From an uncultured archaeon (GTDB lineage Archaea; Thermoproteota; Bathyarchaeia; Bathyarchaeales; Bathycorpusculaceae), in NCBI GenBank assembly GCA_963782915.1, contig CAWALK010000002.1, positions 1 to 49,734 of the forward strand: a stretch of 49,734 nucleotides of DNA. Direction: 5' to 3'. The notes below the pieces were generated by a model, which was not told where the DNA came from, ran no database searches, and saw only the letters and a program-made list of their open reading frames with translations. Shown here in pieces: positions 6,833 through 24,542 of the stretch. The position numbers and the translations under genes were made by a program. Position 1 is the first letter of the stretch; the number at the start of each line of letters is the position of its first letter.

Positions 6833-8024
6833 ATGACAAAGCTACGCTTAGCCGTCTTTAACACCCAACCACCGCATCTTTACTTTGGCGGAGTAGAGCG
6901 GCGCATCCTCGAAGTAACCAAGCGAATAACATCGGAAGCAGAAGTCAATGTTTATTGCGGCACCAAAGCAGGCTTCAAAGCCCCAATCACCATAGACGGC
7001 GTAAACTTTGTCCCCGCCAAATCAACCGACAAACTTTTTCCCCTTGATAACTGGTCATATAACAGAAGCCTCATCAAAAAATCCGAAGTCTATGGTGCAG
7101 ATATTTTTGAGATACACAATAATAGCGCATATGGATTCCCAAAGGCACTCGAGAAACGCAGCCTTAAGAAGCCATTTATCCACCTTATTCATGGACCACT
7201 TGGATGAATACGAACAGGGACTAAAAAACGAGAATCAAACAGTCAGAGTCAACCTCGCCAACAAATTCATGAAGCACCAAGCTAAACAGGAAGAAGCAAT
7301 GGCAAAAAAAGCCTCACTCATAGTCGCCGTAAGCAAGTACTCCCGTGACAAAATCCTTGAGCACTATACTGTCGATGAAGATAAAATTTGGATTATACCC
7401 AATGGCGTTGATGTGGATAGATTCAAGCCCACAAACGCATCGCCGCAAAGCCCAGTTTGGCTTAGGCAAGGAGCCCATGGTGCTTTTTGTAGGCAGCTTA
7501 ATTCCACGCAAAGGCTTACCTTTCCTCGTGGAAGCCGCCAAAAAAATCGTCAAACAACAAGCAGACACAAAATTTGTAATCGTAGGCGAAGGCCCACAAA
7601 AAAACCAATTAACAGAATCGATTAAAGCGGCGGGTTTGGCTGGAAACTTTGTTTTCTTAGGCAACCTAAACGAAACCCAACTGCCCCTAATTTACAACTG
7701 CGCAGACGTCTTCGTTTTACCCTCGATTCAGGAGGGTCAGGGAATAGTTTTGCTGGAAGCGCAAGCATGTGGGAAGCCTGTGGTAGCTTTTGATGTTGGC
7801 GGAATTAAAGAGGCAATGCAAGACGGCAAGACGGGCACTGTTGGTTAACAAAAAAGACAGCGAAGGATTAGCCGAATGCACTGCTCGATTTCCTTTCTGA
7901 TGTATCTTTAAGGGAAAAGCGGGGGGCGCAAGGGCGAATGTTCGTGGAGAGTAAATTTACTTGGGACATCTGTTCTGCTGGTATGTTGAAGGTTTACAGG
8001 GAACTATTGAATTCTACACTATAA
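6833..8024 (+). CDS. GT4 family glycosyltransferase, split by about 4 indels
   Basis: GGVERR, AVSKYS, IPNGVD, FVGSLIPRKG, DVFVLPSIQEGQGIVLLEAQACGKPVV, and FTWD...KVYRELL spread over successive frames. Confidence 0.88.
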
Positions 8025-8183
8025 TGTCAATTTTGTATTGTATCTTACTACGCTCACAACTAGTCTTAAATACTAAAGTTACTGATATTGCAAAGATTGA
8101 AGCAAGCAGGTGAGAGGTAAATGGGAAGGGAGCGCTCTTACATGGAGAACTTTGCTTTAGAGAAAGGAGAAAGGACACGAAAA

Positions 8184-9305
8184 ATGCTATTCAATAACGC
8201 ATCATCAGCCATCAGCAACAGGGCTGGAAAAAGAAGAACCGCATCAATCGCGGCAGTAATGCTTATAGCGCTATCACTCTTAGCAGCCGCGCCGTACGCC
8301 AGTGCATTAACCCAATACGGCGTTACCACCGTTGGGTCAACAAATTATCCAACAGGAACCTTTGGCACCACTAGTGCCGTAGGAACCAACGCGGGCGGCT
8401 TGCGGATTGCATGGTTGCGACAAAATACACCCTAACCGTGGATGCAACAATCATAAAAATCGGCGGTTGAGGCTAACAAGGCAGGCAACTGGAAACTTGG
8501 CATTTACGAAGACAATGCAGGCGCACCCGGTGCCCTTCTTGCAGCAAACAACAATGTGAACCCTGTTGTTGCAGGTCAAAACAACGAATTTGATATCGGA
8601 CCAGTTCACTTAACCGCTGGCACTTATTGGATAGCCATCCTCGATGACACAGCATCCGTCAGATTATACAAAGCATCCCCACCTGGAACAGAACAAGCGG
8701 CATATATCCTACCTTGCAGCTTTGGCAGTAATTTGCCAACTACATTTGGAACTCCAATGTATCAGGACAACGATTATGTTGCCTACTGCAAATACGTGCA
8801 GATTGAAGGATACGCAAAAGCTACAAAAGTAACAGTATCCTCAAGCGCCACAGCTTCGTCAGTAAACTTTTATTCTCATTCAACAGGCAACTTTAGAGTT
8901 GCAGTTTACAGCGACAATTCAGGTCCAGACATGAAACTATGGGAAAGCCCAGACACAGCGGCAATCGCCGGTTGGAACACTGTATCGATTGCATCTGGCT
9001 CACCAGCTATGCTGAATTTGCCAGCGGGAACATACTGGCTTGTTTGGCAATGGGATTCACCAAACGCAGGTCCAAGTTACACCGCAGCTAGCAGCGGCGA
9101 CGGAAACTATGTACCATTGGCATACGGCGGATTCCCAGCAACATGGACAGCCGGCACGTTAACCTCTGAGCAATGGAGCATCAACCTAACTGACGGCGGA
9201 GTAATTCCAACTCCAACCCCAGAAAACCCATTGGGCGCAGTTTTGGCACTTGCAATATGCTTTGGAGCATTTGCAGTGTTCGTAAAATACAAGAAAACTA
9301 AATAG
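8184..9305 (+). CDS. Secreted beta-rich surface protein with PE-TM-basic C-terminal sorting signal; frameshifted at about 8400-8500
   Basis: Signal peptide ending AAPYASA; two related beta-domains (GNFRVAVYSD, LxAGTYW); tail TPENPLGAVLALAICFGAFAVFVKYKKTK. Confidence 0.7.
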
Positions 9306-9334
9306 GCGATTAACCGCCAACTTCTTTTTATTTT

Positions 9335-9871
9335 CTATTTAACCACTGATTTTTCAAATCCGATATTTCGAACCAACTTGTCCAAGTCGTATGGGCTCAT
9401 CCACTCAGTTTTAAGATAACACAAAATCCGTTCTTCATCCATCCCCAAACGCTTTGCCTCTTTAACAGCGTAACGGTAAGCTTCAATCTCCGTGGGTCTA
9501 TCAACATACTCATAGCGGGGGTCAAAGAGTTCTTTGCCATCCATAAACTGCTTCACATGGCACAATTCATGGACCAAGTCAAGGTAAATGTCAGTTTTGT
9601 TGCCAGTGTTTAGGTAGCCTTTGCTTATCACAAGGTGCCCGTCTGCGCCGTCCACGTACATGTAGCCGCTAATCCAGCTTAACTCAACCGTTAAATGGCT
9701 AAGTACCTCAGTGGTTTTTTCGCCAAAAATGCCCTGCACCGCAGCTACCTTATCGAAACCTTTGAAGTACTCCAAAAAAATCCTCTTTTGGTTACCGATG
9801 CTCAGGGGATTAACTGGTAATTTGCGAAACATTCGCAGGATTCGAAACATCACAAATTCTACGCCCGGCAA
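9335..9871 (-). CDS. HExxH zincin-like hypothetical protein
   Basis: LVHELCHVKQ plus downstream PTEIEAY. Confidence 0.65.
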   Translation of the reverse strand: MPGVEFVMFRILRMFRKLPVNPLSIGNQKRIFLEYFKGFDKVAAVQGIFGEKTTEVLSHLTVELSWISGYMYVDGADGHLVISKGYLNTGNKTDIYLDLVHELCHVKQFMDGKELFDPRYEYVDRPTEIEAYRYAVKEAKRLGMDEERILCYLKTEWMSPYDLDKLVRNIGFEKSVVK

Positions 9872-9883
9872 ACTATTTGTCTC

Positions 9884-11245
9884 CTACTTGAAAGCTGAAA
9901 GATACTCAATCTTCATTCCCCGACGGCCTAAATCATCCATGTCCTCAACGCTGCCTATGCTGGCATCGACGTTGCGGTGGATTGGATGACTCCACAATCC
10001 TTCGGGGGCGAGGTTAAACTGCAAGGGTACTCTCACGTTCAAATGGTATTTCTGGTTTATTTCCTTAAGTAATTTGCCCTCTCTGCAGGCGGTGTGGGCG
10101 TTGGCGTAGCTTTGCAGTAGCTGCGAAGCGCCCCAAGCGCCGACGCCATGCCACATAGTCGCATCCTCAGGGGAAGCCAAGGCGTATAGGAAAAACTGAG
10201 GCGAAGAAGGCGTCTCAGCATAACTGTAATCTGAAAGTTTTTCCCCTGCAACAGTGAATTTATCGTCACATACTGCCACAGCTACATCTTCAGGGTCCAT
10301 AGCGTTGGGGTAAAGAGGCGTTGTCTTGTAGGTGACGGTAGCATCTAAGAATTTCCCGTTTTCAAAATGCAACTTGCCTCTCGCAGCACGTTTTGAACCG
10401 TAACCCTTCTTGGAGTGAGGCACTGTTAAAAGTGTCGTACGGTTTTTCATACTTCTGCCCATGCAGGTGTAAGCTGCCTCGACAGACGAGTAATCGTGGT
10501 TACTTTCGCTTATGACGTAGTGGAGCAATCCATCTTTGTTTTCGGCTTTTAGGGTAGAGAGCGGCATACGCAGAGAATATAAGAAGAGGTCCATGCCGAA
10601 GAATTCAGAGAGCTCCTTTAGCTGGATGTACTTTATTGAATCAGAGAAGTCAAGGTAGTTACCATTGCTTTCTCGCAAGGCTTCGGTGATAAGGTCACAT
10701 TCTTTTTTGGAAATCATTGAGCCATCGTACTTTTTGGCGTAAGCTTCATCAATTTTTAATCCAGTGGTAGTGACGTTGGCGACCGGGAAAGCGCTCTGTC
10801 CGCTATCCACGATTGATTGCTTGAGCGGGTTCATGGAGTACCGGTCAGCTTCCACATCATCAGTGTTTAGCAGAAAAGGCACAATATAACCTTCATCGGG
10901 CTTCTTGAGCAACTCAGACAAAACGGTAACGTCACCGGCGTTGGGCTCGTGTAAACCCCGCTCAAGATAATAGTTAGCAGCAGTTACAAGCATCTTTGTC
11001 CCGATAATCCCCTGCACTTCCTCGACAGTCAATTGGGGATTGGTGTACTCCACAGAACAACGCAGGTAGAAGCGTTCATTCTCAAACGGAACAGAAACCT
11101 TTCGGCCGTTTACATAGCGGAAAAGCGTGACTTTGCGGTTTGGCGTTAGACCCTTGGCTGCTTTTGCACCTTCAAGTAGCACTTTAACGGTGGAAAATGA
11201 GGTTTTCAGAAAATCCTCAAGCAGAAGTCTACAGTAATCAACCAT
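9884..11245 (-). CDS. Hypothetical protein, 453 aa, family not recognised
   Basis: Long ORF with GAGG RBS, tightly packed between the GNAT and HExxH genes. Confidence 0.75.
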   Translation of the reverse strand: MVDYCRLLLEDFLKTSFSTVKVLLEGAKAAKGLTPNRKVTLFRYVNGRKVSVPFENERFYLRCSVEYTNPQLTVEEVQGIIGTKMLVTAANYYLERGLHEPNAGDVTVLSELLKKPDEGYIVPFLLNTDDVEADRYSMNPLKQSIVDSGQSAFPVANVTTTGLKIDEAYAKKYDGSMISKKECDLITEALRESNGNYLDFSDSIKYIQLKELSEFFGMDLFLYSLRMPLSTLKAENKDGLLHYVISESNHDYSSVEAAYTCMGRSMKNRTTLLTVPHSKKGYGSKRAARGKLHFENGKFLDATVTYKTTPLYPNAMDPEDVAVAVCDDKFTVAGEKLSDYSYAETPSSPQFFLYALASPEDATMWHGVGAWGASQLLQSYANAHTACREGKLLKEINQKYHLNVRVPLQFNLAPEGLWSHPIHRNVDASIGSVEDMDDLGRRGMKIEYLSAFK

Positions 11246-19451: not shown

Positions 19452-19780
19452 CACCCTGTAGTTGACTAGTCCCTGTTGTTTGAAGTACCATAGCCCCAAA
19501 ACCTGTAATTTGTTAGAGTGTGTCTCTGTTGTGACACTCAGAAACACTATAGTTGTTGTCGCCAAAAAGCTGCTATACACAGCATCTTCCAGTGGGTTTG
19601 GCTGGCAGCTGTGTTTTGAAGCGGGCGTTTGGGGTTGGTGGCTGGTTGTGGAGGTTTGTGCAAGCAGGTCGGGCTGGCGAGCGGTTGTAGGGTTAGTTGT
19701 GGTTTTTTTCTATAGGCCCCTTATCTAAAGGCGTATATGGAAGCGTATGCGCAAGCTCGATTGGATCTGTTGCTTTGCCA

Positions 19781-19849
19781 AGACCTCCCTACCCCCTATA
19801 AAGAGCTGCTTCTGCTGCTCTGCCGACTACCCCCCTCCCCTATATATAG
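19781..19849 (-). repeat. Intergenic G-rich element, copy 2 (19816-19849) and partial copy 3 (19781-19800)
   Basis: Reverse complements read CTATATATAGGGGAGGGGGGTAGTCGGCAGAGCA and TATAGGGGGTAGGGAGGTCT. Confidence 0.7.
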
Positions 19850-20220
19850 ACAGAATTAGTGAATAAATTTGCAAACAATGACAGCAATGAACAGCGCAAT
19901 GAAGTCGGGCACTAGCATGGCCCATTCAATTCAATTCGCCCGTAAACCCAGAAGAGCCGCTCATTACAGATAAGCCATCTTGTCCCACCCGTGGCACAAC
20001 ACAAAGGCCACCAAACCAAAACACTAAACAAAACCACAACACCCAACCCAAACCGCCCAATAAAGAATCTTACGAAATAAAAAGCACAATAAAAAAGGGC
20101 ATATTAAAGCAACAAAACCCGCCCCTCACACTCTATAAACAATCCCCACAAACAAAAAAACAACAGAACAAGCCAAACTCAATGCCCTACTCGAATTCCG
20201 AGCGAGGCTTCTCCGACTGC

Positions 20221-20388
20221 TTAATAATATACCCAATAACAAAAACAGAAACCCACCCACGTAGTCAAAACCCTATCCCCAACCCGCTTCTTAAAAGTAG
20301 TATGCTTACTCGAACGTACCTCTTCAAAACCGTTCGACAGCAAAATCTCAATGACTTTTCGCTGCGCAAGAGGACGAAGCTTTGGGAT
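20221..20388 (-). pseudogene. hicA: HicA-like toxin, truncated after LTTWV, no ATG
   Basis: PKLRPL..KVIEILLSNGFEEVRSSKHTTF; homology stops before the usual VPxH and runs into low-complexity sequence. Confidence 0.7.
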
Positions 20389-20626
20389 GCAAAACACCTT
20401 CAGGAACTTCAACGGCAATATTTGCCAAAGAAAGCGAAATTAAATCTTCATAAGCAGGCTTCTGCGTATCAGGGTCGCTAAGGTAATCATTAATCAAATC
20501 CGCCATATTCTCCTTAACCTCTGCCTCAGACAGCCCCTGCGTAGCAATATCAAGCAGCGGACAAGAAGCAACAAACCACTTACCCTCACGAGCAATGATA
20601 ATAGGGAACGGCAACTGAATCGACAC
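20348..20626 (-). CDS. hicB: HicB-like antitoxin (short, RNase H-fold only)
   Basis: IIAREGKWFVASCPLLDIATQGLSEAEVKENMADLI; overlaps the hicA start. Confidence 0.85.
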   Translation of the reverse strand: MSIQLPFPIIIAREGKWFVASCPLLDIATQGLSEAEVKENMADLINDYLSDPDTQKPAYEDLISLSLANIAVEVPEGVLHPKASSSCAAKSH

Positions 20627-20927
20627 TACTGACACCCAACAATAAAGCAGTCTCAATAAAGATATAATTGTTTCTTAAAACCACCCAAAACAAAAGCTGG
20701 CTCCTACGCAACCCGCCAAACCAACCCATACCCAATAACAATCCCCATAAACAGAAAACACAATAAACAAAAAACCTGACCATTAACTTACGATAGCGCT
20801 GGAGAGATAGAGAAGCTACCTCATTGCCATTAAAGAACAATTATACGACGCATTGTCATAAACAATAAATAATAATCTAACGAAGTGATTGTTAATGCTT
20901 ACTTCAACTGACTAAAAGAAAAAATCG

Positions 20928-21200
20928 TTGCCTAAGGGTCCCTTAGGCGGTGTATTTTTGAGCCTTTGCGGTACATTATTTATCGGTGTCGGGTATGTTG
21001 AGCTTCTTTTTGGCTTGAGTGGTGGCGTGGGATATCCTCAGAGGATGGTTGCCCCTGAATCCTTTGTCGTGCAACAGATTGTTACTGGTGCTTCCATGTT
21101 GGCATTAGGTATTCTAAGTTGGGTTGTATTTTTAGCTCTAATTCTCACTAGAAGAGAGTTTTTGTTTGGCAAGAAGGAATTTACAACAATCAACCATTAA
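20928..21200 (+). CDS. Small two-TM membrane protein (unit R0-R1)
   Basis: Two hydrophobic helices; ends INH* with its TAA inside R1. Confidence 0.6.
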   Translation: MPKGPLGGVFLSLCGTLFIGVGYVELLFGLSGGVGYPQRMVAPESFVVQQIVTGASMLALGILSWVVFLALILTRREFLFGKKEFTTINH

Positions 21201-21268
21201 GAACAAGTTTTGGAGCGTTAGTTTAGTAAACCTCTTAAGTGAACTAACTTACATAGTCAGCGATTGTA

Positions 21269-21565
21269 ATGGTTGAATTATCCCCATTTGCTGAGCTACT
21301 GTTTTTCCTTTAATATTACACGTTACCAATGATGCCTTTTTTGGTTGGAGGCATTTTGTTCTATTTTAAGCCCAAGCATAGATTGAGCATAGGCGTTTCA
21401 TTGATATTTTTTGGAGTTATCGAATTACTATTCGCTTTTATTGAGTATTGGTATCCGTATGGAGCAGGATCATATTGTGGTTTTGGCTTACTGACAATAC
21501 TTCTAGGGGTAATATCTGTTCTTTACCCCAAAATGTTAAGCAAAGACAATAGAATCAAGAAATAA
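21269..21565 (+). CDS. Small multi-TM membrane protein (unit R1-R2); in-frame TAA near 21311
   Basis: ATG at 21269 is in frame with the 21329 ORF; three hydrophobic helices and a basic tail. Confidence 0.55.
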
Positions 21566-21687
21566 CTTCACACTCTCACTAACTTGAGTTGGAGAGCTAG
21601 AGTAACAATTTAATGGCCGCTAAAAGAAGTTCATTAGGGCTAAGTTTATTGTGATAGATTGATTAGTTGGGTGTAAAGGGATAAGGA

Positions 21688-21982
21688 TTGCATGAGTTTA
21701 GGCAAGTAGCCCTATTGGGTTTGATATTGGGTATTATTCTTGAGGCAGCAGGTTTTGTTTCCCTTGTTAATTATTTTGCTAACGATGTTGTGTATAATTA
21801 TTTGCTAGGTGGTATTGGCGTAATCGTTGTTGGTATAATGTTTCTTGCTAAGTCTGTGCCTGTGTTTATTCCCATTAAGCAGCAACAGTCTGTTTCTAAG
21901 GTTTGCCCAAACTGTGCAGCTTTAATTGAAGAGAATGCTAACAGTCTGTGAGAAATGTAAGCAACAAATAACTGAGAATTAA
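21688..21982 (+). CDS. Two-TM protein with C-terminal zinc ribbon (unit R2-R3); indel near 21945
   Basis: CPNC, then CEKC in a shifted frame, ending TEN* inside R3. Confidence 0.65.
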
Positions 21983-22057
21983 CCATTAAGAACTAGTTTT
22001 TGGAGCCCTATCTACTTCTAAGTAAATTATATAACATAACAAACTCATTAGTCCAAT

Positions 22058-22662
22058 ATGGCTAGAATGGGTAAATATCAATTATTATACTTAGTTGTAC
22101 TCTTAGTGGTCTCATAGCTTATTATTGATTGAATCTACTAAAGCGCAGATTGAACAAGTTCCTACTTATTGTGATATTTTTGTAGATGATATTGTTGAAG
22201 GACAACCTGTAACAGCAACAATCCAAATGTCTCCTTCAACACCAACTGGAGAAGGTTACACTCAATTAATTGTGTATTTAAAGTCTCCAAATGGCGTTGG
22301 ACCATCAAGCCCAAATGGTCCTTGGGTATACACTAATATTCCAACAGCCCCAAACGGCAGGGCTACAGTAACTTTTGATGTACCTACTTATAGTGGCAAA
22401 TGGTATGTATTTGTGGATTTTGGAGGTCACTCTTATGCTAACTATTCAATGTTTTATTTTGGAGGCACTTGGCAAAAAGAATTTACTGTTAATCCAGTTA
22501 CAACTCCAACACCTAATAGCACAACTACTCCCACTCCAGCTTCTATACCATGCTCCAACCTAAGTCCCAGAGTTTCCCATAACACTCTCATTGGTTGCAG
22601 TTCTAGCTGCTGTGAGTCTATTGCTGATATTAGGTAAGAGAAAGCTAAGTTTCACCTATTGA
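22058..22662 (+). pseudogene. Secreted Ig-like surface protein with PT linker and PEF-CTERM tail (unit R3-R4); disrupted
   Basis: Broken signal peptide; beta-rich core; TPTP linker; PEFPITLSLVAVLAAVSLLLILGKRKLSFTY* with TGA inside R4. Confidence 0.65.
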
Positions 22663-22682
22663 GAACTAGTTTTAACAGATAT

Positions 22683-22880
22683 ATGGAGCATTATTGGTTA
22701 TTACCTTGAAGTTGGTGTGACATTCTTTGCAGTTGTATATTTCTATTTTGAAGCATTGATTCTTTAGTGCTCTTGTAGGTTGGTTAATTTCTTTTCCACA
22801 ATTAGTACAATGGGTCAAAGGTATCAATTTGTTTATGGTTGAATAGAGATATGGCTTTTATGAATTCAAAATACACTTAA
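22683..22880 (+). pseudogene. Decayed small membrane-protein gene (unit R4-R5)
   Basis: Hydrophobic fragments (e.g. LEVGVTFFAVVYFYFEALIL) broken by stops. Confidence 0.35.
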
Positions 22881-23028
22881 CCAACAAACTATAAGGTAAT
22901 TTTCGGAGCGCAAAAATGCAATCAAGTAAAATATAACTTACAATTAGCTAAGTTCCGTTATAGCTTACCGTCTGTTTTGGTGTTGGGTTATAGTTTGGGT
23001 TGTAGGTGGGTTGTAGAAAGATTTTCAA

Positions 23029-23317
23029 GTGCAAGCACAAACAGGCTACTACGCCATAACTCAAAAGCCAGGACCTATACCTGGCGGACTTATTCAATTG
23101 CCTTCTGACTATACATCGATTACTTTTAATGAATCGAAAGCAAGTGATTGGAGCAATCCAATAACAGTTGACCTGAGTAAAATGGCTGTGGTAACTCCAA
23201 CCCCAACTCCCAATATACCAGAGTTTCCAATAACAATATTATTGGTTACAGTTCTAGTCTGCTGTTAGTCTATTGCTGATAATAGGTAAGAGAAAGCTAA
23301 TAGCAATCAACCATTAA
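23029..23317 (+). pseudogene. C-terminal fragment of a PEF-CTERM surface protein (unit R5-R6)
   Basis: SDWSNPITV, TPTPTPNIPEFPITILLV; shifted tail GKRKLIAINH* with TAA inside R6; no N-terminus. Confidence 0.6.
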
Positions 23318-23320
23318 GAT

Positions 23321-23542
23321 CTATTTTTTGAGCGTAGAAGGTGTGAGTGATTGTTGGTGTTTTTTCCAATCATTCTTTCTATCAATATGATAAGCAATAC
23401 CAATTAACGATAAAACAACAACTATAATAATCAAAGGAAAAAGGTTCATGTTGATAAGGCCATCAAATTGTCCATCTACAACGATGAGAATTGATAACAT
23501 TATAGTAAATAAGGTAATTTCTGGGGTTGGGCTAGCCAGCAC
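23321..23542 (-). CDS. Small two-TM membrane protein convergent on R6
   Basis: Hydrophobic helices; last codons and TAG lie inside R6. Confidence 0.5.
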   Translation of the reverse strand: MLASPTPEITLFTIMLSILIVVDGQFDGLINMNLFPLIIIVVVLSLIGIAYHIDRKNDWKKHQQSLTPSTLKK

Positions 23543-23586
23543 ACATTTATATCATAAGACAGCCCATTCATGAAAGGAGATCACCC

Positions 23587-23829
23587 ATGCAAGCCCTCAC
23601 AAAAAAAGCGGACCCCAAAATTCTCCAACTATTCCCAAGCCTCAACAGCACAAGCTCAGCAAACAATGCAGAGAAAAAAGCCGTCCTTCAACGAGTAGCT
23701 TGCTTAAAGGTTATCGGCGACAACGGCCCCGCCAGCACCTCGGATTTAGCCGTCAAACTCAAGGTTCCCCGAACTCAAGCAGCAAAAACCGCCAAAGAAT
23801 TGGCCTGCTTTATCGCTAATCAAGGCTGA
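23587..23829 (+). CDS. Small winged-HTH protein
   Basis: GPASTSDLAVKLKVPRTQAAKTAKEL; strong AGGAG RBS. Confidence 0.6.
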   Translation: MQALTKKADPKILQLFPSLNSTSSANNAEKKAVLQRVACLKVIGDNGPASTSDLAVKLKVPRTQAAKTAKELACFIANQG

Positions 23830-23936
23830 AAAAAACACAGAGAACCACCCATTTACACTCTGACAACAGCCGGCTTTGTTGCTTTAGCGGCTTTTGATGA
23901 AATTCGGATTGGACAAAGATTAAGTCAGCTTTAGCG

Positions 23937-24542
23937 GTGCCCCAGAAAAAAAATGACCCCCTGGCGTATGCGCTTCTGGTTGTTGGTTTCTGCGCTAACA
24001 AACCCGACGGCGTCTACCAAGCCCTATGCCGATATGGTGCTCAAGGGAACACATTCGAAAATATTCCAGCGGATGTTTCAGCGGAGGCATTGCTGAAGTT
24101 TTACCGCCAAGAACTGCGAGCCCAAAGCCCAGTGCCGCCCATATATCTGAGTGTTTTTAAGGAATTCACCACCGCAGGCTTCCAAGAAGTCTTCAAAATG
24201 CTACTGCTCGCCATTAAGCCGACTGCTGAGGATTACAATTGGCTTGTAGAATTCTTCAACGAGGTATCTGAATTCTATTTTGACCCTGCACGAATCGCTT
24301 TCGTCAACCTGCTGCCCCAAAGTGAAAAGTTACGGAAAGACTTGGATGACTTCAAGAAAGCCCAAGACCAACAAATCAAAAAGCAAAACGGCAACCTCGA
24401 AGTAACCTTCACAATCCCCGGTTCAGGCTTCTCCAAAATCGATGCCATGCCACCTCATCTGCGGGCAATAGGAATGAGGCTGATTCTTGAACCAGTCAAA
24501 TTCATAAATAAAGAATTGGTTGATTATTTCTGGGCAAAATAA
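23937..24542 (+). CDS. Hypothetical helical protein
   Basis: 201-aa ORF; no family recognised. Confidence 0.65.
   Translation: MPQKKNDPLAYALLVVGFCANKPDGVYQALCRYGAQGNTFENIPADVSAEALLKFYRQELRAQSPVPPIYLSVFKEFTTAGFQEVFKMLLLAIKPTAEDYNWLVEFFNEVSEFYFDPARIAFVNLLPQSEKLRKDLDDFKKAQDQQIKKQNGNLEVTFTIPGSGFSKIDAMPPHLRAIGMRLILEPVKFINKELVDYFWAK

Follow-up and report, generated by a model that had tools for sequence, protein, structure and literature searches.

Several systems are known in which small genetic modules are joined by a conserved site. In integrons this is attC, a folded site of 60-150 nucleotides (nt), and in plasmid dif (pdif) modules it is a dyad-symmetric 11-6-11 sequence whose copies alternate in orientation. 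Published archaeal integrons carry attC sites with the bacterial fold together with the integrase IntI, according to the cited sections of their description (PMC9668308), and plasmid dif modules have been published for Acinetobacter (cited in part: PMC6449649, PMC13141974). The chromosomal dif site of archaea is described, in the portion cited here, as 11-bp inverted repeats that are perfect or have few mismatches, lying 6 bp apart and present once per chromosome (PMC2958812). Among integrative elements, the type I “suicidal” integrases are described for Thermococcales elements in the cited part of PMC7253208. Here we describe a 2.9-kb islet of low guanine-plus-cytosine (GC) content in a 49,734-nt stretch of DNA from an uncultured archaeon of the Bathycorpusculaceae (Bathyarchaeia; contig CAWALK010000002.1, positions 1 to 49,734), referred to below as the window, in which single small genes are separated by copies of a directional motif of about 27 nt. 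Our tentative reading, to which we assign a probability of roughly 0.45, is that the islet is the cargo region of a small integrative-element lineage of one Bathyarchaeia genus, the modules of which would recombine via the motif.

A directional motif bounds single small genes

In a logo of 28 sites the motif reads AcCATTAAGAACTAnTTTTGGAGCgTaa and consists of two blocks, CATTAAGAACTA and TTTTGGAGC; its conservation ends abruptly on both sides and the flanks are unconserved. The pattern AACCATTAAGANCNANTTTTNGAGC has three matches in the window (at 21192, 21981 and 23309), compared with none in 100 shuffles, and the GC content at 21-23 kb is 0.355-0.369 versus about 0.45 elsewhere in the window. 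Within the islet the motif copies bound single small genes, as the initial annotation, made from this stretch alone, had claimed for a conserved site in AT-rich DNA. The three clear copies, R1 (21190..21219, + strand; nhmmer E = 5.5e-07, matching the pattern with 0 mismatches), R3 (21980..22007, +; E = 9.3e-05) and R6 (23307..23336, +; E = 1e-05), fit one pattern, and a repeat finder aligns 51 nt around these three places. Two further copies were recognized by reading the sequence and have no nhmmer match at E<=0.05: R4 (22653..22689, +), with a 10-nt insertion between TTTT and TGGAGC, and R5 (22877..22911, +), of which only the right half, TAATTTTCGGAGCG, is present. Both had been described in this form in the initial annotation.

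Unrelated genes had also been said to stop at the same position of the site. In the window, the TAA of CATTAAG is the stop codon of the R1 gene and, in a shifted frame, of the R6 gene, R4 has TGA at the same place, and the R3 gene stops at the first TAA of the arm, at 21980, after deletion of one base, as in public contigs. The generalization did not hold over 105 sites, where stops lie inside the motif for 16 of 58 upstream open reading frames (ORFs) and 13 of 42 opposite-strand ORFs; a stop codon within the motif is frequent, not a rule. A promoter role for the motif was considered and set aside: downstream, start codons peak 40-50 nt past GGAGC (16/63), these counts being non-independent owing to recurring gene families. 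On reading the sequence, TATA-like boxes apparently lie just upstream of cassette start codons at about 21305 and 22026, and the cassettes seem to be self-contained expression units.

The motif is specific to one Bathyarchaeia genus

A profile built from 22 seed sites was searched with nhmmer at E<0.01. In the source genome (G000, 3.28 Mb), sites at this threshold are confined to two loci, the window with three and C20:341456-342243 with three. A 22-nt core, allowing at most two mismatches, occurs 62 times in 42 of the 120 species genomes of the genus, compared with six occurrences of a reversed control. When the exact 19-base pattern was searched in 185,579 species genomes, 24 stretches were found, of which 20 belong to Bathyarchaeota/Bathyarchaeia or uncultured-archaeon records; the other four are bacterial, about the chance number by our own estimate. 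The motif is thus specific to one Bathyarchaeia genus, and 62 metagenome contigs also match it. Arrays hold 1-5 sites, and their units are single small genes spaced 230-1300 bp.

Homology breaks concentrate at the motif

The comparative set comprised 52 fetched loci with 86 sites, and 76 sites were used in a flank test in which 70 nt on each side were compared in all 2850 pairs. Flanks were similar on the left only in 60 pairs and on the right only in 47 (107 one-sided), and on both sides in four, while the test centered on control points 200-300 nt away in either direction gave two-sided similarity in 12-14 pairs and one-sided similarity in 6-18. The one-sided excess at the motif, reversed at the controls, indicates that breaks in homology concentrate at the motif.

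Individual loci show what changes at these breaks. The 78-amino-acid (aa) gene of family F4 in the window has an 84% identical copy at G000:C20:341096-341466, where homology runs from the AAGAAC of one site to the AAGAA of the next. The right flank of R6, DNA of a K7/r2-family gene, recurs at 88% identity after the single site of genome G034, there behind a different left flank. The R3 gene and its site are common to the window and genome G012, the two diverging immediately past GGAGC; the single site of G012 (locus L030) corresponds to the left side of R3 joined to the right side of R6, so that the window has an additional block of three cassettes, 1328 bp long. In the same manner, an arrangement A-site-B in G013 is found as A-site-[two genes]-site-B in G028. 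A search of 171 sites flagged eleven triples, in each of which the left flank of a second site and the right flank of a third, downstream of the second, meet at a single site. On alignment only some of these triples are clear and the others rest on class-level flank similarity, and the position of the crossover inside the motif is not resolvable from them, as identity spans the whole core.

In 20 of 21 multi-site loci all sites point the same way, the exception being L077 (G133:C1:168000-180000), where one site, at 8398, is reversed and lies across a transfer RNA (tRNA) gene, tRNA-Pro, from the array. The orientation of each gene family relative to the site is fixed, being the same for K2 (12/12), K3 (12/12) and K4 (10/10) and opposite for K0 (16/16), K6 (6/6) and K7 (5/5). 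A cassette segment of at least 150 nt is shared by 35 pairs of loci, 23 of them without any common flank, and the identity of these common cassettes reaches 85-89%, versus a median of 74.7% for flank matches. Three DNA read runs were also inspected; with small shares (0.13, 0.05 and 0.00), a depth of 2-3 and partial cover they contained no site-to-site joint and had no power for or against excision. As judged from these comparisons, the motif is shown to be the place where modules were inserted, deleted and exchanged between loci and species. The units behave as the cassettes they had been proposed to be: a profile scan of the relatives returned clustered, co-oriented arrays in which gene presence varies between species with boundaries at the sites.

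Arrays are associated with tRNA genes and integrase stumps

The second array of the source genome, on C20, starts directly after a tRNA-Arg gene, and a tRNA gene lies within 1.5 kb of sites in 29 of the 52 loci. A conserved zinc-ribbon ORF, F3, is found within 1.5 kb of sites in 25 of the 52; by our own reading of the locus maps it always lies between the tRNA gene and the first site, pointing away from the sites and running into the 3' end of the tRNA. In G034 (L027), a 294-aa ORF located 2.8 kb from F3 has its start within a 32-nt repeat of the 3' end of tRNA-Arg, and this ORF, the C-terminal part of the integrase, matches the SSV-type integrase domain PF16795 with 40.6 bits (cut-off 27). 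In L051 (G014), the N- and C-terminal parts of the integrase are contiguous. The matching C-part in L027, together with the contiguous parts in L051, therefore identifies F3 as int(N) of a type I “suicidal” SSV-type integrase. An att repeat of the tRNA was found in 6 of 48 cases. Intact ORFs account for 33 of the 54 F3 matches (e.g., G000:C20:340718-341047), the median pairwise ratio of nonsynonymous to synonymous substitution rates (dN/dS) is 0.34 and a zinc-ribbon domain of about 55 aa is strongly conserved; the stumps may have a function of their own. The motif-bearing arrays thus appear to represent one sub-lineage of SSV-type elements that mostly survives as stump plus cargo.

The array in the window itself has no match to F3 or to IntC, the catalytic half, between 14001 and 30000, and the sole tRNA gene of the window lies at 438-513. 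No recombinase was found within the window, in agreement with the initial annotation, and the only integrase of the source genome is a broken one on C24.

Two related loci retain additional structure. In L051 (G014:C1:838000-854000), the contiguous N and C parts, at 7754-9420, are in different frames across a tRNA-like att, and upstream come an inverted motif-like sequence and a half-site, followed by an F6 gene, a degenerate site and an r2-type gene, a set of modules that the window shares. L026 (G020:C170) contains several partial copies of the tRNA-Arg 3' end (at 1590, 5760, 6750 and 11013-11090) and, in 11 kb, two integrase stumps, HicAB-like and PIN/VapBC-like pairs and four sites, an arrangement suggestive of a hot spot of integration in which remnants of elements are stacked.

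A proposed module-exchange system

In the reading we favor, modules of one gene each, encoding small membrane, zinc-ribbon or PEF-CTERM-like surface proteins, would be joined head to tail by the non-palindromic motif. Through conservative recombination between directly repeated motif copies, a module would leave or enter as a circle with one copy of the motif. Catalysis would be supplied in trans, the candidates being an SSV-type tyrosine recombinase, whose N-terminal stump is the anchor in half of the related arrays, or some other enzyme of the host. The array in the window would be a relic of such an array, possessing no integrase, stump or tRNA and located at a synteny break next to a weak HicAB-like pair. 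A more ambitious form of this proposal would be an integron-like archaeal capture platform, in which a tRNA-linked zinc-ribbon SSV-type stump under purifying selection, its promoter abutting a primary 27-nt asymmetric site, would be combined with circular single-gene membrane and surface modules that are captured, excised and reshuffled by a recombinase recognizing a non-palindromic duplex. We consider this form doubtful.

A number of observations weigh against the proposal. Flank similarity is to a large extent shorter than about 100 nt, so that some of the one-sided signal comes from variants of an extended site and not from whole cassettes; these variants comprise two promoter-type left flanks, a “GACAGC...CAATC” left extension and a “AAACTCTGCT” right extension. 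No recombinase could be tied to the motif in the loci and contigs searched. IntC is present in 2 of the 52 loci (missing in 50) and in none of the 62 metagenome contigs. Integrase homologues are no commoner in motif-bearing genomes (6/19) than in others (17/41). None of 12 other integrase loci has a site at E<0.01, and by our own comparison about 20 of the 72 F3 copies in the genus adjoin the motif. A Pfam search with representatives of the 40 multi-member clusters of neighboring genes (242 clusters in total) gave no recurrent recombinase, returning only one IntC cluster and one two-member PF00589 cluster, and in five array-bearing genomes integrase genes were far from the arrays or not found. 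The motif had no matches in viral contigs, giving no episomal form, and none of the 62 metagenome contigs has the terminal overlap of a circular form. Most genomes hold just 1-3 sites, and much of what is seen may be fossil. The motif is without dyad symmetry or a flanking inverted repeat, which is unusual for the core sites of tyrosine and serine recombinases. Finally, homologous recombination at a conserved linker would predict the comparative pattern equally well.

Alternative explanations

This last point leads to the rival that survives best, in which the motif is regulatory punctuation kept by selection (an oligo-T terminator with stops in all frames, perhaps a factor-binding site) and related elements at tRNA hot spots swap modules by homologous recombination at the 27-nt linkers, in the manner of the PeSLs of T4-type phages. 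We regard it as possible, though less likely than our own reading. The motif does carry a run of 4-6 T directly after stop codons, as well as stops in several frames on both strands, the cassettes seemingly have TATA-like boxes of their own, and neither a dyad nor a dedicated recombinase was found. PeSLs are reported, in the cited part of their description, to mediate modular shuffling and to give mini-circles (PMC2839356), and the several att copies in L026 point to tandem integrations, by which related elements would be brought together. A terminator function is more difficult to reconcile with the absence of a stem-loop and with the single orientation of the motif, as the ORFs around the sites lie on both strands (165 co-oriented and 135 opposite) and a T run is lacking on the opposite strand. 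The first site, moreover, lies beside the integrase promoter with no upstream co-oriented gene needing termination, and GGAGCG and CATTAAGAAC are far more tightly conserved than is usual for archaeal terminators or promoters.

The arrays could also be passive relics, left by tandem integrations at tRNA genes followed by deletions, with the motif being a conserved piece by the integrase promoter such as an operator. In many loci the left flank of the first site is indeed the promoter region of the stump (flank classes A and B), degenerate class-B flanks recur within the window array at 20800 and 21590, L026 has its several att repeats, and the C-terminal halves of the integrases are mostly lost. 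This explanation is nonetheless unlikely, since to the left of most internal sites lie gene 3' ends or a different extension and not stump promoters, the tRNA att repeat was found in so few cases, the units are single small genes at 230-1300 bp intervals, and a concentration of breakpoints at the motif is not expected from random deletion.

The initial annotation had compared the site to Xer/dif sites, giving it an 11-6-11 layout. A dif-like site used by the host XerA, as in the plasmid dif modules of Acinetobacter, would account for the similar length (about 28 nt) and for modules bounded by sites, and is very unlikely in view of the lack of dyad symmetry in the motif. In the 11-6-11 layout the arms coincide at 3.5 of 11 positions, no combination of arm and spacer lengths gives a dyad better than 0.728 (0.749 for shuffles), and with 11-nt arms and spacers of 4-8 nt the best match over 62 sites is 6.44 versus 6.44 for shuffles. 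The archaeal dif site is a near-perfect inverted repeat present once per chromosome in the cited part of PMC2958812, whereas the source genome has six clear copies in two loci, all co-oriented, and many of the related loci lie by tRNA genes. This layout was accordingly rejected. An identity as a miniature inverted-repeat transposable element (MITE) or insertion sequence was likewise rejected, as the copies are direct and not inverted and there is no inverted repeat across or beside the sites.

We give almost no credence to a canonical integron or a CALIN (an attC cluster without an integrase), known as these are from Archaea (PMC9668308, cited in part) and suggestive as the tandem short ORFs with sites at their 3' ends may be: seven sites folded as single strands do not outperform shuffles (z between -0.94 and +1.08), the complement of the left arm is matched within 150 nt downstream at 8.9 of 14 positions versus 8.7 in an upstream control and 8.6 when shuffled (28 sites), complementarity between the 60 nt on either side of the site is 6.30 versus 6.32 for shuffles (76 sites), with no inverted repeat across the sites, and the best match to the IntI model TIGR02249 in the source genome reaches 28.3 bits against a cut-off of 265. 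The absence of RYYYAAC...GTTRRRY, which had been noted earlier, holds for the sites generally, with the exception of R1, which has AATCAAC ... GTTGAAT plus a 9-bp inverted repeat.

Gene content and boundaries of the islet

The left border of the islet is formed by a HicA-like ORF (20221-20418) and a HicB-like ORF (20348-20656), together spanning 20221..20656 on the - strand. The neighboring toxin-antitoxin pair of the initial annotation is retained in weakened form: a match of the HicA-like ORF to PF07927 exists at 19.5 bits, below the cut-off of 27, and the HicB-like ORF has no family match. DNA homologous to this pair sits elsewhere in relatives. In relatives the left (cheA region) and right flanks of the islet are distant from each other, e.g., 2.00 versus 1.49 Mb in G014, which places the islet at a synteny break. 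Searches of 19500-24500 against Rfam returned no RNA family, the only match being a chance-level one to greA (25 bits, gathering threshold 60).

Two degenerate boundaries were recognized in addition to the sites described above. The first, an interrupted one at 20778..20850 (+), consists by our reading of the sequence of GACCATTAAC, 12 nt, TGGAGAG, a class B left flank and CCATTAAAGAACAATTATACG; the second, R2, at 21553..21640 (+), consists of AAGAAATAAC, 22 nt, TTGGAGAGC, a class-B flank and GCTAAAAGAAG. A direct repeat (D6) ties the 20778-20850 boundary to 21590-21624, the two boundaries have a further box in common (TGGAGAGCTAGAG...TTAATGGCC), and the layout of the first is also found beside the integrase stump on C20.

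The first cassette gene (20928..21200, +) is taken from the ORF list and encodes a 90-aa membrane protein that ends in INH* within R1 and has no family match. It is followed by a gene for a 78-aa two-helix membrane protein of family F4/K3 (21329..21565, +), whose homologue lies on C20, and by a gene for a membrane plus zinc-ribbon protein of family F6 (21688..21982, +), which has homologues in L030 and L051 and is frameshifted in the assembly near 21940. The next gene (22058..22662, +) encodes a secreted protein with a PEF-CTERM-like tail and is frameshifted at 22114 and again before the tail, which matches TIGR03024 weakly (19.5 bits, cut-off 23). A gene for a 51-aa zinc-ribbon protein of family K0 (22672..22827, -; ORF list) is antisense to the sites. 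A second PEF-CTERM-like protein is encoded at 23029..23317 (+) by a gene frameshifted in its tail and ending in INH* within R6, and the last cassette gene (23321..23542, -) encodes a 73-aa membrane protein of family K7/r2, the stop codon of which is the complement of CTA in R6.

Contigs of the public run X1 equal the window exactly except for one base fewer at 21940 and at 22114. Deleting the base at 21940 extends an ORF from 87 to 97 codons (the zinc-ribbon membrane protein, then ending at 21980), and deleting that at 22114 extends one from 19 to 192 codons (the secreted protein). Because the X1 contigs, which lack these bases, restore the ORFs, the two frameshifts are probably assembly indel errors or strain variants and not decay.

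The tails of the two PEF-CTERM-like genes are 88-95% identical (repeats D2 and D4). A low-depth X1 contig joins 22545 to 23218 with 17 other letters between them, a joint that falls between these paralogous tails and not at sites. It would fuse the body of the first PEF-CTERM-like protein to the tail of the second, and a deletion variant, a third paralogue or mapping ambiguity are all possible.

The most frequent cassette is that of the K0 zinc-ribbon family (CxxC...CxxC, 46-75 aa), which has 16 members spread over 15 loci (e.g., G000:C20:342276-342401, -) and whose protein is a candidate DNA-binding accessory factor. Outside the islet, at 19767-20114 of the window, lies a multi-copy element composed of a C-rich stretch and a TATATATA box followed by about 200 highly conserved nt. 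At least 10 long copies (78-85% identity) and dozens of 40-nt promoter-like pieces are spread across the contigs of the source genome; the element has no Rfam match and may be a small RNA gene family or very small ORFs.

Significance and relation to known systems

Bathyarchaeia are abundant and uncultured, and their cell-surface variation and gene exchange are almost unknown. We have identified a genus-wide, sharply bounded DNA signal where genes for small membrane and surface proteins were swapped, which provides a 27-nt probe and a target for the polymerase chain reaction (PCR). The motif allows one to ask whether archaea own a cassette system independent of integrons, and it hints at an afterlife for “suicidal” integrase stumps at tRNA genes. 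A dedicated enzyme, if there is one, would recognize an unusual asymmetric site. Literature searches on archaeal integrons and on Bathyarchaeota integrases and mobile elements, covering few subscription journals, returned no description of a motif-punctuated SSV-type cargo.

The arrays share features with each of four described systems, as far as the cited parts of those descriptions extend. Like integrons and CALINs (PMC9668308), they have tandem co-oriented sites, mostly single small genes, ORFs that often run into the site, and cassette content that varies between genomes with boundaries at the sites, and half of the related arrays begin by a divergent recombinase gene, here only an N-terminal stump. 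Unlike integrons, their site is a linear sequence of about 27 nt without a hairpin, there is no IntI, the adjoining recombinase is SSV-type and split, the cassettes seemingly have their own promoters, many genes are antisense, and an array has 1-5 sites.

Like SSV-type elements (PMC7253208), related arrays have an integrase that is antiparallel to the tRNA gene, overlaps its 3' end and is split into int(N) and int(C), with different tRNAs being targeted. They differ from the descriptions found of those elements in having motif-punctuated cargo, with int(N) mostly intact and int(C) missing in nearly all loci. The PeSLs of T4-type phages (PMC2839356) are comparable in that hyperplastic regions contain small ORFs, most of them unknown, between short conserved motifs at which shuffling occurs; unlike PeSLs, which are phage sequences made up of a bacterial promoter and a stem-loop terminator, the motif described here has no stem-loop and occurs in tRNA-linked chromosomal islets of an archaeal host. 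As in the Acinetobacter dif modules (PMC6449649, PMC13141974), the modules are small and often have toxin-antitoxin genes nearby, and there too sites of about 28 bp bound modules shuffled between replicons; unlike the XerC/XerD sites of pdif modules, the sites here are asymmetric and all co-oriented. Taken together, these arrays fall within a kind already known, that of cassettes or modules linked through a conserved site, in which the motif-punctuated cassette arrays found across this Bathyarchaeia genus are new.

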